Below the pieces are notes generated by a model, which did not search any database, was not told where the DNA came from, and was given only the letters and a program-made list of their open reading frames with translations. From positions 75,409-139,408 of the forward strand of contig JAFXVA010000008.1 in assembly GCA_017534965.1 (NCBI GenBank): DNA of 64,000 bases, read 5' to 3'. This document shows, in pieces, positions 48,727-50,598 of the stretch (positions are counted from its first letter, which is position 1; each line of letters opens with the position of its first letter). Origin of the DNA: Elusimicrobiaceae bacterium (lineage in GTDB: Bacteria > Elusimicrobiota > Elusimicrobia > Elusimicrobiales > Elusimicrobiaceae). The position numbers were made by a program, and so were the translations under genes.

Positions 48727-49476
48727 TTAATTTAAATTATCTAAATCAAACAAAGTGCTTTCTCGTAAAATAAACGGATATTCTTGAATTTTTTGCCCAT
48801 CTAAAAGATTTCCTCCTTTATTTTTATCTCTGCCACCCCATTGCTTAAAGAAAAACGGCACTTTTTGCTCTTGGCATTGTTTTTTTATATCTAAAACCCA
48901 TTCTTTTTGCATAGGGCGGGCATTTTCGCCAGATTCACCACCGAGAATAACCCAATCTATTCCTTTTAAATCAAGATTCTTTAAATTACTCAAAAGCGGT
49001 TCTAAAGATAAAAATTTTGTTTTAGCACTACATTTTTTAAGCAAATCAAGGCGATAAAGATACTCCGCACTTTCTATTGTTGTGCCCATTAAAACATTAT
49101 CATACCAAGACAATTTATCGTTTAATTCTAACATTCTTTCAGGCCTTTTTGTAAGTATTTGATATTTATGATGAGGAGTATTTTTAATTGTTTCAAAAAT
49201 TTTTAATAAAAAAGATAAAGGCACTTTTTCGTGAAATAAATCACTCATTGAATTGGCAAAAATCAATTTTGGGCTTTTCCATTTAAGAGGGATGCTTAAA
49301 GCATCTTCGTGCAGAGCCACTTTAAAACCTTTTTGATAATGTGCTGCTCCTATAGATTGCAAATACAAAGCCATTTTATAAGCATAGCAATTTTGGCAAC
49401 CTAAAGAAATTTTACTGCAACCCGTAACGGGATTCCAAGTTGCACTGGTCCAGGAAATACGGCTATTTTGTGCCAT
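48727..49476 (-). CDS. DUF5131 / phage Gp37-Gp68 family protein (three-Cys motif)
   Basis: N-terminal [26 protein letters not shown] (C20-x6-C27-x2-C30) and GGESG further on. AAGGAG RBS 15 nt after the upstream stop. Confidence 0.8.
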   Translation of the reverse strand: [249 protein letters not shown]

Positions 49477-49491
49477 TTTTACTCCTTAAGT

Positions 49492-50529
49492 TTATAAATA
49501 TTTATAAATATTATACCAAGATTTTGTAATTCTACTAATAATAGTTTTAAATTTTGGGAACTGGCTTAATTTAAAAAATATTATTTGAGCTTGTTTTTCA
49601 GATATTCCTTTCAACAATAAGTTGTTAACAATTTCTCTATTCAAATTCCTTTTTGTAGAAGACAATTTCTTTTTTATATAAAAAATTAGAGAAAAAATCT
49701 TCTTTGTAATATTAAAATTATTTATTTTCATACTAGAAGATATATTTTTCCCATTAAAACTATATTGCCAAAAAATATTATTAGCAATTAACATAGACTT
49801 TTTATCTTTTGTAATCAGAAATAAAGCATTAATTTGACTTTTATCTTTCAAAATAAATTCTCTAATGTATTTTGTTCCTAATAATTTAGAAATTTTTGAA
49901 ATTATTGATTTAGAAAAAGTATACACGTTTTTATAAGGAAAAATTCCTTTTGTTGTATATGTTTTTAAAAAATCTTTCACTTTACCGTTTGCTTCCTGAT
50001 AATTAGCAAATCTATACGCATAAAAAATTGGAATAAAAAACAAAATTTCTGTATTCGGTAAGGAAAACATTCTTTGTAAATCTTCTATTGTAATATCTGT
50101 ATAGCCAAAAGGATCTAATAGAAAAAATTTATAACTATTTTTTCCCATTTTTGACAACAAGTGAGGATAAATTTTATGAAAATCATCATTAAAAATCTGA
50201 ATATTAACTTTTTTATTTATTGTTAGTGTGGATAGATTTTTATGCAAATATTTGATATTTTCTTCATCAATATCATTAAAAAATAAATTTATTTTAAAAT
50301 TATCACAAATATACTTAAATTGAAAAATCTTTTTAATAATATTTATAATAATTAAAGGGCTGCCAAGGTTTTTTCCATTTTTCCCTGAACCACAAAATAA
50401 GTCTGCTATATTGCATTCTTGAAAAGATGTCGCTTTCCTAATCAAATATGCAGTAATATATTCTTCAAATATATTGGTTTTGATTGCTGTAAGTTTGCTC
50501 TGTTTCTTAAAAAACAAAAGAGCTGACAT
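49492..50529 (-). CDS. TcmP-like (three-Cys-motif partner) protein, methyltransferase-fold
   Basis: ATG at 50529 after GGAG. ADLFCGSGKNG (SAM motif I-like) and FLLDPFGY (motif IV-like). Lies directly upstream of the DUF5131 gene. Extremely AT-rich. Confidence 0.65.
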   Translation of the reverse strand: MSALLFFKKQSKLTAIKTNIFEEYITAYLIRKATSFQECNIADLFCGSGKNGKNLGSPLIIINIIKKIFQFKYICDNFKINLFFNDIDEENIKYLHKNLSTLTINKKVNIQIFNDDFHKIYPHLLSKMGKNSYKFFLLDPFGYTDITIEDLQRMFSLPNTEILFFIPIFYAYRFANYQEANGKVKDFLKTYTTKGIFPYKNVYTFSKSIISKISKLLGTKYIREFILKDKSQINALFLITKDKKSMLIANNIFWQYSFNGKNISSSMKINNFNITKKIFSLIFYIKKKLSSTKRNLNREIVNNLLLKGISEKQAQIIFFKLSQFPKFKTIISRITKSWYNIYKYL

Positions 50530-50569
50530 AAATACTCCATACAGTATTAAGACAGCCCTCTTGTTTGTT

Positions 50570-50598
50570 ATAGTAATAATTTTTATTCTTTTTGTCAA
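50570..50598 (-). promoter_or_regulatory. sigma70 promoter of the TcmP-like/DUF5131 cassette (TTGACA-17 nt-TACTAT)
   Basis: Minus strand: TTGACA (50598-50593), 17-nt spacer, TACTAT (50575-50570). Confidence 0.6.

Follow-up and report, generated by a model that had tools for sequence, protein, structure and literature searches.

The locus analyzed here is a small, horizontally mobile two-gene operon with its own promoter, and it encodes a methyltransferase-fold protein (TcmP) together with a radical SAM protein of the DUF5131, or phage Gp37–Gp68, family. What is new in the present analysis is the predicted spore photoproduct lyase (SPL)-like fold of DUF5131, the predicted fold of TcmP with its helical domain, the pairing of TcmP with a three-Cys radical SAM protein at 38 of 38 evaluable loci, the abutment of the pair on restriction–modification (RM) genes, and the mobility of the cassette. 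We tentatively favor, at somewhat less than even confidence, a reading in which TcmP and DUF5131 form a SAM-dependent, nucleic-acid-directed conflict module. A literature search returned only database and annotation mentions and no functional work on TcmP, DUF5131, or the pair, in agreement with the initial annotation, which had described the pair as having no established biochemical function.

A two-gene operon with its own promoter

Both open reading frames lie on the minus strand of the window, by which we mean the whole 64,000-nt stretch of DNA that was analyzed. The first gene, tcmP (49492..50529; 345 aa, matching TIGR04474), ends in a TAA stop codon at 49494–49492, and is followed, across a 15-nt spacer (49491–49477), by the gene for the DUF5131 protein (48727..49476; 249 aa, matching PF07505), whose ATG (49476–49474) stands 5 nt downstream of an AAGGAG ribosome-binding site (49487–49482, within the spacer). 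The tight linkage of the genes, the 15-nt gap, and the ribosome-binding site, all described in the initial annotation, can be read directly from the sequence. The neighbors of the cassette in the window are gyrA, rsmE (PF04452), and a MiaB/MtaB-like gene (UPF0004 plus Radical_SAM), all of them housekeeping genes and none a defense gene.

The cassette promoter (50570..50598, minus strand) consists of TTGACA at 50598–50593, a 17-nt spacer, and TACTAT at 50575–50570; it is located immediately inside the left edge of the cassette homology and scores 10/12 in a promoter scan. Promoter-like patterns in this AT-rich stretch number 16, against 12.8 ± 3.4 in shuffled sequences, and are thus not enriched. 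Because pattern statistics give no support, the call rests on position (after the strong gyrA terminator) and on conservation: a TTGACA or TTGAAA box and a TAnnAT box, 17 nt apart, occupy the equivalent position in four diverged copies of the cassette (L001, L043, L045, and L047), and the promoter proposed earlier was retained on these grounds. A mechanical 368-aa open reading frame for TcmP would open at TTG 50598, which we rejected as a start codon because this TTG is part of the −35 box. Judging from the sequence, the true start of tcmP is almost certainly ATG 50529, since a GGAG lies 5 nt upstream of it and the close homologs are all 345 aa long and open with MSALLFF.

The intrinsic terminator of gyrA (50628..50669, minus strand; a 16-bp stem followed by UUUU) lies outside the cassette and folds at −25.3 kcal/mol (z = −6.8, with 0 of 200 shuffles folding as well). 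This terminator forms the upstream edge of a variable hotspot between gyrA and rsmE. A terminator scan and RNA folding found no terminator 3′ of the DUF5131 gene.

TcmP has a predicted class I methyltransferase fold

The initial annotation had identified the upstream protein as TcmP and had proposed for it a nucleic-acid methyltransferase fold. The identification is confirmed by TIGR04474, which the protein matches at 107.3 bits (cut-off 53; E = 1.2e-30) over model positions 3–262 of 263, and the protein also matches the PADLOC model PDC-M30A (E = 1.1e-36). A Pfam search gave no family match for it, and neither single-protein nor profile searches found sequence relatives in the PDB. With the AlphaFold model (pLDDT 87.6) as query, Foldseek retrieves 154 chains from the PDB (E ≤ 1e-3), of which the best 50 are methyltransferases, at TM-scores of 0.3–0.5; a structure search in BFVD gives the same methyltransferase picture. 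In this model, residues ~12–256 are predicted to form a class I SAM-methyltransferase fold, and residues ~274–342 probably form a C-terminal helical domain of the winged helix-turn-helix (wHTH) type. Many TcmP homologs bear the GMT-wHTH domain PF22560 at the aligned C-terminus; Pfam detects no such domain in the window protein, though the corresponding C-terminal stretch can be aligned to the domain and is helical in the predicted structure. The window protein is also short, at 345 aa versus about 370 aa in most homologs.

The SAM-type motifs are well conserved: among 34 homologs, D43, G47, G49, and D139 never vary, and F141 and Y143 hardly do. The protein contains the stretches ADLFCGSGKNG and FLLDPFGY. 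In the former, D43, G47, and G49 follow the strand at residues 38–44, as motif I does in methyltransferases, and the nearly invariant N85 and D86 after the strand at 79–85 supply the acidic residue that methyltransferases carry after strand 2. In the latter, D139-P-F-G-Y143 follows the strand at 133–138 and is kept as D-P-F-x-Y, which is noncanonical when compared with the (D/N/S)-P-P-(Y/F/W) of amino-methyltransferases; by position and character it may be said to resemble their motif IV, and the likeness is one of resemblance only. Of the earlier proposal, the class I methyltransferase fold stands in the predicted model, the structural neighbors of which mix small-molecule and RNA methyltransferases, with none pointing specifically to DNA.

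The DUF5131 protein is a radical SAM protein

The downstream protein matches PF07505 over its full length (306.1 bits, gathering score 28.9, model positions 1–243 of 243), as well as phrog_2045 (E = 1e-85) and the PADLOC model PDC-M30B (E = 7.7e-108). Its three cysteines (C20, C27, and C30, spaced Cx6Cx2C) and its GGESG motif (residues 179–183), both pointed out in the initial annotation, are invariant across 40 homologs; C201 is invariant as well. The AlphaFold model (pLDDT 88.1) predicts a core of alternating strands and helices, and its six best fold matches in the PDB are all spore photoproduct lyase, each with probability 1.0 and a query TM-score of 0.48–0.55; the best is 4fhf (E = 6.6e-4), with the remaining five at 0.0012–0.0037. 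The match is modest (TM about 0.5, identity 11–14%), with generic TIM barrels ranking next. The likeness is found only at the level of the fold: phmmer and a profile search returned no SPL chain at E ≤ 10, nor did single-protein and profile searches find any other sequence relative in the PDB.

The DUF5131 protein is a member of the radical SAM superfamily. At RadicalSAM.org, DUF5131 constitutes a radical SAM subgroup, Megacluster-5-2, in a megacluster that also takes in SPL (5-3) and MJ0683-like proteins (5-1) (PMC9477430). The predicted structure combines a partial TIM-barrel fold with a GGE-type SAM motif, as radical SAM proteins do; the canonical CX3CX2C is absent, and the Cx6Cx2C found in its stead places three more residues between the first two cysteines. 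Accepted members of the superfamily include variant cysteine spacings. The enzyme with a Cys cluster, possibly Fe–S, that the initial annotation had envisaged can accordingly be described more narrowly: the three-Cys motif stands, and the protein becomes a radical SAM superfamily member whose nearest fold is that of SPL. With SPL (SplB; 4fhf, 4fhc, and 4k9r), DUF5131 shares its nearest solved fold, a partial TIM barrel, in addition to superfamily, megacluster, and the GGE-type SAM motif. The two differ in cysteine spacing (CX3CX2C in SplB) and in length (about 340 aa in SplB versus 249 aa), and in bacteria DUF5131, unlike SplB, is obligately partnered by a methyltransferase-fold protein.

The family is large, with more than 8000 DUF5131 hits in this search. 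DUF5131 genes with no accompanying tcmP are present in 178 genomes of phages, both temperate and lytic, and on one Dehalococcoidales chromosome; TcmP is therefore not required for DUF5131 chemistry as such.

TcmP and its radical SAM partner are inherited as a unit

We surveyed 41 genome loci carrying tcmP, 38 of which could be evaluated for the partner. In every one of the 38, a three-Cys radical SAM gene begins no more than about 70 nt after tcmP and on its strand; this gene belongs to DUF5131 in 29 loci and to a COG1533/PA0069-like (SplB-like) group in the other 9. The alternative partner matches radical SAM models of the PA0069/Rv2578c type, which we take to correspond to the COG1533 "SplB" group, and the two partner families are collinear, including a GC..GC..CYA motif (hhalign E = 3.5e-4 over 197 columns). 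The arrangement seen in the window, with tcmP leading a near-overlapping three-Cys gene on one strand, is found at 29 of the 41 loci, and other genomes supply 28 complete pairs in which the distance from tcmP stop to DUF5131 start ranges from −20 to +23 nt. The recurrent pairing of TcmP with a Gp37/Gp68 protein that the initial annotation had described is thus borne out, the pair being syntenic across phyla and formed with DUF5131 at 29 of 41 loci.

Distance matrices of TcmP and DUF5131 are correlated at r = 0.65 (Mantel test, 0 of 5000 as high), a result that simple co-transfer predicts likewise. These data show that tcmP and the DUF5131 gene are co-inherited as a unit, in tight or translational coupling. 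Neither gene is disrupted, and their dN/dS values, which fall between 0.08 and 0.29 (0.13–0.29 for tcmP, 0.08–0.12 for the DUF5131 gene), show purifying selection on both. The TcmP family comprises about 4400 representative clusters at 50% identity and is spread patchily across phyla. A phage-borne version of the two-gene form was rejected for now, as TcmP appears in none of 50,697 phage records and in no IMG/VR contig.

The cassette moves between two chromosomal hotspots

The mobile unit (48723..50607, minus strand) is the stretch held in common with cassette copies at another chromosomal site in other Elusimicrobiaceae, and its ends lie a few nucleotides outside the −35 box and the DUF5131 stop codon. 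Aligned to the window by blastn, the copies in L045, L046, and L047 extend from 50601/50607 to 48729/48723 at 82–83% identity, with non-homologous flanks. The unit has a GC content of 25.9%, compared with 35.2% for the whole window, and tcmP (21.5% GC) is the lowest-GC kilobase in the window.

At the gyrA–rsmE site, the conspecific contig L054 lacks the cassette and carries a different gene, whereas L043 carries the cassette along with another gene, on both sides of which the 27 bp at 50660–50686 are duplicated. In L045, L046, and L047 the cassette instead has an epimerase gene on one side and a tRNA gene on the other, with an exact 23-bp duplication at its flanks (clean in L047), and six further contigs (L048–L053) represent empty counterparts of this insertion site. 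A search for a flanking direct repeat at the gyrA–rsmE insertion site of the window gave low-complexity AT-rich matches only, and a truly empty version of that site was not recovered among the contigs compared (L054 carries its different gene, and L057 is not syntenic there). No recombinase gene lies beside the cassette in the window, L043, L045, or L047. The junction of a circular form of the cassette would read AGAAGAAAGTTTTAAATAAATTT.

The cassette is thus shown to be horizontally mobile accessory cargo of 1.9 kb, found at two chromosomal hotspots. Its acquisition by horizontal transfer, claimed in the initial annotation, is supported by low GC, absence from a conspecific contig, a second site with a 23-bp duplication, and empty sites.

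Restriction–modification genes adjoin the pair

At 9 of the 41 loci (about 22%, as a raw fraction), an RM gene of type I, IIG, or III adjoins the pair on the same strand. These genes are at most 105 nt away and are of type IIG in L008, L011, L016, and L027, of type I in L010, L017, L030, and L033, and of type III in L021; in some cases their stop and start codons overlap with those of the pair. The top Pfam families among the 133 nearest neighbors of the pairs are N6_Mtase, Eco57I, ResIII, HSDR_N, and TaqI_C, and a PADLOC scan of the same 133 neighbors likewise returned RM models. The neighbors vary across all 41 loci, and a plasmid copy of the pair lies between an integrase, an IS4 transposase, and HigBA.

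The window pair corresponds to the PADLOC candidate PDC-M30, both component HMMs being matched by adjacent, co-oriented genes. PDC candidates were derived by "guilt-by-embedding" in type I RM, BREX, or DISARM systems, and are, by the authors' own statement, candidates for phage defense (bioRxiv 10.1101/2024.01.29.577857). An anti-phage role for TcmP and DUF5131 has already been put forward in the form of this candidate. Like PDC-M30, homologous pairs adjoin type I and other RM genes; structurally nothing differs, and the window pair departs from it in lying between gyrA and rsmE rather than embedded in a defense system.

Two other systems invite comparison. The radical SAM mobile pair A/B (TIGR04471/TIGR04470) is likewise a mobile two-gene unit, built of the same two SPL-like radical SAM clades that supply the partners of TcmP; the window DUF5131 protein matches TIGR04471 partially (84.8 bits, below the cut-off of 355), as the alternative TcmP partner does TIGR04470 (43 bits, cut-off 410). 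That pair consists of two radical SAM proteins, whereas the window pair joins one radical SAM protein to a methyltransferase-fold protein. PrrC-type cargo of type I RM loci resembles the cassettes of L010, L017, L030, and L033 in being a small accessory unit co-oriented with and abutting hsd genes, although PrrC itself, an ABC-ATPase anticodon nuclease, is unrelated to the TcmP and DUF5131 proteins. By analogy, this PrrC-like position raises the possibility of a role as a backup or complement to restriction, of the kind discussed for RM-embedded cargo (bioRxiv 10.1101/2024.01.29.577857). Ophion was considered as a relative and rejected, being a three-gene radical SAM defense system with PHP and PRTase components.

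Proposed function and alternative readings

In the conflict module that we tentatively favor, DUF5131 would bind a [4Fe-4S] cluster through C20, C27, and C30, bind SAM partly by means of its GGE motif, and cleave it reductively to give a 5′-deoxyadenosyl radical, which, by analogy with the action of SPL on DNA, would abstract a hydrogen from a nucleic-acid substrate. TcmP would bind SAM too, using the glycines of motif I, the acidic residue after strand 2, and the DPF-x-Y loop after strand 4; it would probably recognize the target with its wHTH-like C-terminal domain and present the base, and may additionally transfer a methyl group. Together the two proteins would act on a modification of DNA (less likely RNA), whether by installing, altering, or removing it, and the outcome would serve conflict between phage and host or among mobile elements rather than housekeeping. 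Points against this reading are the modest likeness to SPL, the mixed structural neighbors of TcmP, the noncanonical DPF-x-Y, the solo DUF5131 genes, the small share of loci with an adjoining RM gene, the housekeeping neighbors in the window, and the fact that co-transfer also predicts the correlation of the distance matrices. A more specific version is unlikely to hold in all its parts: TcmP and an SPL-like radical SAM enzyme would write or erase a new radical-derived DNA modification, with TcmP responsible for site choice and base flipping and DUF5131 for the radical step, in the service of stand-alone or RM-assisting immunity or of self-marking, and the cassette would move by a ~23-bp target-duplicating recombination without a recombinase of its own.

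It is rather unlikely, in our judgment, that the pair is instead an orphan epigenetic or anti-restriction module, whose unusual mark would shield host or mobile-element DNA from foreign restriction and which would spread selfishly without itself restricting phage. Such a module would fit the frequency of DUF5131 in phages (the 178 records mentioned above), where anti-restriction is typical, the absence of a nuclease or other effector from the cassette, and the movement of the latter as a minimal unit with its promoter. The two-gene form is cellular, however, given that TcmP is absent from phage records and IMG/VR contigs, and the complete RM systems that share an operon with the pair have their own methyltransferase, which argues for a separate role.

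We assign a low probability to small-molecule or nucleotide chemistry, in which the pair would make a modified nucleotide or metabolite that, in the manner of the viperin-type chain terminators, blocks phage replication, or that has some other role. The synthesis of antiviral nucleotides by radical SAM enzymes is an established theme in defense, the best structural matches of TcmP include histamine N-methyltransferase, CkTcS, COMT, and CouO, and the defense-island context agrees equally well with this reading; Ophion, another radical SAM defense system, has been proposed to act through nucleic-acid interference. Against this, the nearest solved fold of DUF5131 acts on DNA and is neither viperin nor MoaA-like, the C-terminal wHTH of many TcmP homologs suggests binding to a polymer, and genes for a kinase, a phosphatase, or nucleotide handling are absent from the cassette.

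The same low probability attaches to DNA repair, with the pair, or DUF5131 alone, reversing a lesion (a cross-link, a photoproduct-like dimer, or an aberrant alkylation) by radical chemistry as SPL does, and TcmP acting as the subunit that recognizes the lesion or base. The fold and megacluster that DUF5131 shares with SPL, and with the MJ0683-like proteins in the latter case, are what such an enzyme would have, the alternative partner matches PA0069/Rv2578c-type models, and solo DUF5131 proteins in phages could mend phage DNA. Repair genes are usually core genes, however, whereas conspecifics may have or lack the cassette, which also moves from one site to another; adjacency to RM genes with overlapping stop and start codons is unexpected for a repair enzyme; and the host appears, from the sources of related contigs (L001 being a MAG from goat abomasum), to be a gut or rumen anaerobe that would meet little UV.

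A housekeeping rRNA/tRNA modification cluster with the adjacent rsmE (a 16S rRNA methyltransferase gene) and the MiaB/MtaB-like methylthiotransferase gene is very unlikely and already largely refuted by the presence/absence polymorphism of the cassette: these genes do lie downstream in the window, with no terminator between DUF5131 and rsmE, and the structural neighbors of TcmP do include the RNA methyltransferases KsgA, TrmK, TGS1, and Hen1, but the conspecific L054 keeps gyrA–rsmE without the pair, other relatives hold the pair at an unrelated site, and the neighbors vary in 41 of 41 loci, alongside anomalous GC and a patchy distribution across phyla. A toxin–antitoxin reading was rejected, both products being enzyme-sized proteins with enzyme folds.

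Significance of the cassette

DUF5131 is among the larger radical SAM subgroups without an assigned reaction, and an action of the pair on DNA, if confirmed, would extend the defense and epigenetic repertoire by a new nucleic-acid chemistry based on radicals. The locus offers unusually clean material for a test: the unit is minimal at 1.9 kb and brings its own promoter, and natural, isogenic-like contrasts are provided by conspecific contigs that carry the cassette, lack it, or carry it beside another cargo gene. With filled and empty insertion sites defined, expression experiments, comparisons of modification between carriers and non-carriers, and reconstitution can all be designed from the sequences.

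Predicted folds of TcmP and DUF5131

The upstream protein of the cassette belongs to the TcmP (three-Cys-motif partner) family and has a methyltransferase fold, as the initial annotation had proposed: it scores 107 bits against TIGR04474 (cut-off 53), and its AlphaFold model (pLDDT 87.6) has a Rossmann-type core of seven strands and, after it, a helical C-terminal domain. A Foldseek search of the PDB matched 154 chains at E<=1e-3, the best 50 of the 154 being methyltransferases, all distant (TM 0.3-0.5) and mixing small-molecule with RNA enzymes, and BFVD gave an equally generic methyltransferase picture. 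Cofactor-type motifs are conserved: in an alignment of 34 homologues, (near-)invariant residues occupy the positions expected for SAM binding after strand 1 (D43, G47, G49), strand 2 (N85, D86), and strand 4 (D139-P-F-x-Y143). A Pfam search with the window protein gave no match; many homologues carry PF22560 (GMT-like wHTH) at the C-terminus, and that of the window protein can be aligned to this region, but Pfam makes no domain call there. With a threshold of E<=1e-3, the family comprises ~4400 representative clusters, of which 2213 reach 1e-10 or better.

The downstream protein matches PF07505 (DUF5131, phage Gp37/Gp68 family) end to end at 306 bits, and the Cx6Cx2C and GGESG motifs by which it had been recognized are invariant. 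Its conservation far exceeds that of TcmP: identity between phyla is 55-60%, more than 8000 matches were obtained, and the invariant positions include C20, C27, and C30 (the Cx6Cx2C motif), C201, SMSDLFH, LTKR, SxEPL, and GGESG. The six best PDB fold matches of its model (pLDDT 88) are all spore photoproduct lyase (SPL; probability 1.0, TM ~0.5), one entry of which is the sole match at E <= 0.001, and those ranking below are generic TIM barrels. These matches of a predicted structure agree with RadicalSAM.org, which lists DUF5131 among radical SAM proteins as Megacluster-5-2, beside SPL (5-3) and MJ0683-like proteins (5-1) (PMC9477430). Neither single-protein nor profile searches detected PDB sequence relatives of TcmP or DUF5131.

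Obligate pairing of TcmP with a radical SAM-type partner

Sampling a single genome from each species gave 41 tcmP loci, spanning Elusimicrobiota, Bacteroidota, Omnitrophota, Patescibacteria, Gammaproteobacteria, Verrucomicrobiota, and other phyla, and showed the pairing to be recurrent, as suggested earlier, and syntenic. DUF5131 lies directly 3' of tcmP on the same strand in 29 of the 41. Nine others (L004, L009, L011, L013, L016, L018, L023, L029, and L036; mostly candidate-phyla-radiation lineages and Gammaproteobacteria) encode a different, related partner of ~285 aa (for example, L009 11145-11996), with a Cx3Cx3C motif, GCSHGCRFPCYA, and weak matches to three radical SAM models, PA0069, Rv2578c, and 'mobile pair B'. 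This alternative partner is collinear with DUF5131 over 197 columns (hhalign E 3.5e-4), in which LTKR/LTKG and SxEP as well as the cysteine motif and the late cysteine are aligned. The PADLOC models do not include one specific to its pair with TcmP. The other three are truncated at a contig end or frameshifted, so wherever the locus can be judged, TcmP is accompanied by a protein of the SPL-like radical SAM type.

Among 28 complete pairs, the DUF5131 start lies -20 to +23 nt from the tcmP stop (overlapping in 11), the distance matrices of the two proteins correlate (r = 0.65; 0 of 5000 permutations as high), and purifying selection acts on tcmP (dN/dS 0.13-0.29) as well as on DUF5131 (0.08-0.12). 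Dependence is one-way: TcmP occurs with a radical SAM protein, while DUF5131 is also found alone, in 178 phage genomes and one Dehalococcoidales chromosome. Among viruses, neither phage records nor IMG/VR contigs yielded a TcmP. Signs of decay or uncoupling appear at loci in other genomes (L041 2267-3238, L060 4104-5735, and L061): TcmP of L041, a Saprospiraceae MAG, is broken into three frameshifted pieces, and the Dehalococcoidales DUF5131, 58% identical to that of the window, has no trace of TcmP upstream.

Gene layout and promoter

Both minus-strand reading frames are real, with tcmP at 49492-50529 and the DUF5131 gene (249 aa) at 48727-49476; the spacer is exactly 15 nt, with AAGGAG at 49487-49482, as first described. 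A mechanical call extends tcmP to a TTG (49492-50598), which we do not take as the start because it is the first half of a -35 hexamer. Translation almost certainly begins at the ATG at 50529, which has GGAG 5 nt to its 5' side; close homologues are all 345 aa long and begin MSALLFF. The putative cassette promoter noted initially (minus strand, TTGACA-17-TACTAT, 50598-50570) was recovered by reading the sequence and by a promoter scan. Promoter-like patterns occur at chance level in this AT-rich stretch (16 vs 12.8 +/- 3.4 in shuffles); this one is credible because it lies between the strong gyrA terminator (fold -25.3 kcal/mol, z -6.8) and the start codon, and because its -35/17 nt/-10 arrangement is conserved in four cassette copies just 82-94% identical.

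The region's top-scoring promoter-like site (TTGAAA-18-TATAAT, 11/12) lies antisense within tcmP (50320-50349, plus strand) and is probably a by-product of 21% GC. No intrinsic terminator was detectable between the DUF5131 stop and rsmE (48590-48726; fold z-score +0.5), and rsmE and the mtaB-like gene may receive read-through transcription that starts at the cassette promoter. Two loci from other genomes, L056 and L058, lack 74 nt corresponding to window 48649-48722.

A transferable unit at two insertion sites

Horizontal acquisition, also proposed initially, is upheld by low GC, a conspecific contig without the cassette, a second site, and empty sites. No kilobase of the 64-kb window (35.2% GC overall) is poorer in GC than tcmP (21.5%); the DUF5131 gene has 32.3%. 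The gene order is dnaA-dnaN-gyrB-gyrA-cassette-rsmE-mtaB-like, and conspecific contigs diverge exactly between the gyrA terminator and rsmE, where the window has the cassette only, L043 (94-97% nucleotide identity) has a 334-aa two-TM gene and then the cassette, and L054 (gyrA 96.8% identical) has just a variant of that membrane-protein gene, encoding 354 aa, and neither TcmP nor DUF5131. This intergenic region is a cargo hotspot in the species (window 50628-50703 and 48590-48726; L043 4347-5844; L054 3463-4957). A 27-bp repeat and a second terminator-like hairpin enclose the L043 insert: each module is preceded by the repeat, GTTGTTTAAGTAAAAAAGAAACCCCTG (window 50660-50686), together with a terminator-like hairpin, and a second motif, TATAAA-C-C-T-ATAAAAAAGTAAA, lies behind each. 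The L054 two-TM protein matched neither Pfam nor PADLOC.

In four other Elusimicrobiaceae contigs (L001, L045, L046, and L047; TcmP 76-88% identical), the cassette follows the 3' end of an NAD-epimerase gene, at a site ~90 nt upstream of a type II tRNA gene. Homology of these copies to the window is limited to 50601/50607 through 48729/48723, beginning shortly ahead of the -35 box and ending at the stop codon. In L047, a perfect direct repeat of 23 bp, AGAAGAAAGTTTTAAATAAATTT (5910-5932 and 7810-7832), stands on either side of the insert, and six related contigs with an empty site (L048-L053; for example, L048 ~4935-4960, L051, and L053) have one copy of this sequence, then the tRNA gene. We found no recombinase gene in or adjoining the cassette. 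Given the filled and empty sites and the bounded homology, the two genes and their promoter constitute a discrete, accessory, transferable unit.

Two further features of the window concern its surroundings. A TTG-initiated ORF of 301 aa (45679-46584, minus strand), located between glmU and the mtaB-like gene, has a HELGH zinc-metalloprotease-like motif (LAHELGHTL) and was negative in a Pfam search; L043-window homology ends within it, at 46337, L043 has just ~160 nt before glmU, and the ORF looks like another strain-variable gene. The Pfam-confirmed dnaN (55981-57084) and dnaA (57222-58583) share the strand of gyrB and gyrA and lie upstream of both. Cumulative GC skew is lowest near 57.5-58.7 kb and rises after, and 58250-58999 has ~25% GC. 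The replication origin is probably just upstream of dnaA (about 58584-58823), which would place the cassette ~8 kb from oriC.

Restriction-modification context

Both cassette proteins match PDC-M30, one of the PADLOC phage defence candidates (PDCs), a set of 145 untested candidates selected for their occurrence inside type I restriction-modification (RM), BREX, or DISARM systems (bioRxiv 10.1101/2024.01.29.577857); with TIGR04474 and PF07505, the system is already catalogued. Our neighbour survey (133 nearest neighbours, two per side of the pair) independently reproduces this RM signal. The commonest Pfam families are N6_Mtase (7), Eco57I (6), ResIII (6), HSDR_N (5), and TaqI_C (5), with Fic, PLDc_2, Peptidase_S24, GIY-YIG, and RhuM also present, and a PADLOC scan of the same 133 returned mostly RM models. 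An RM gene adjoins the pair in 9 of the 41 loci (a raw count): Type IIG enzymes ending 105 nt before to 14 nt after the tcmP start (L008, L011, L016, L027), a Type I HsdR upstream (L017), Type I hsd genes beginning 6-14 nt past DUF5131 (L010, L030, L033), and a Type III Res fragment overlapping the tcmP start (L021). The sole plasmid copy is surrounded by an integrase, an IS4 transposase, and HigBA.

Proposed function

We suggest that DUF5131 would bind a [4Fe-4S] cluster and SAM and generate a 5'-deoxyadenosyl radical, acting, by analogy with its nearest structural relative, on nucleic acid, most plausibly DNA. TcmP would bind SAM, and the polymer through its C-terminal domain, presenting the target with or without methyl transfer; the output would be a modification, or removal of one, relevant to conflict with phages or mobile elements. 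Taken whole, a SAM-dependent, nucleic-acid-directed conflict module is a tentative reading, to which we give somewhat less than an even chance. That the pair lays down a protective orphan mark on DNA and plays no part in defence is unlikely. Slightly less likely still is a small-molecule or nucleotide product; we rate lesion repair equally low. Housekeeping RNA modification is very improbable, and a role tied to the neighbouring rsmE and mtaB-like genes is strongly countered by the discrete, accessory, and transferable nature of the unit.

The initial annotation stands in both observation and interpretation, and both are sharpened by the radical SAM/SPL assignment, the alternative partner of TcmP, the RM adjacency, and the filled and empty insertion sites. 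The pair will not surprise a defence-system specialist, yet it offers a well-defined entry point to a radical SAM subgroup without an assigned reaction.
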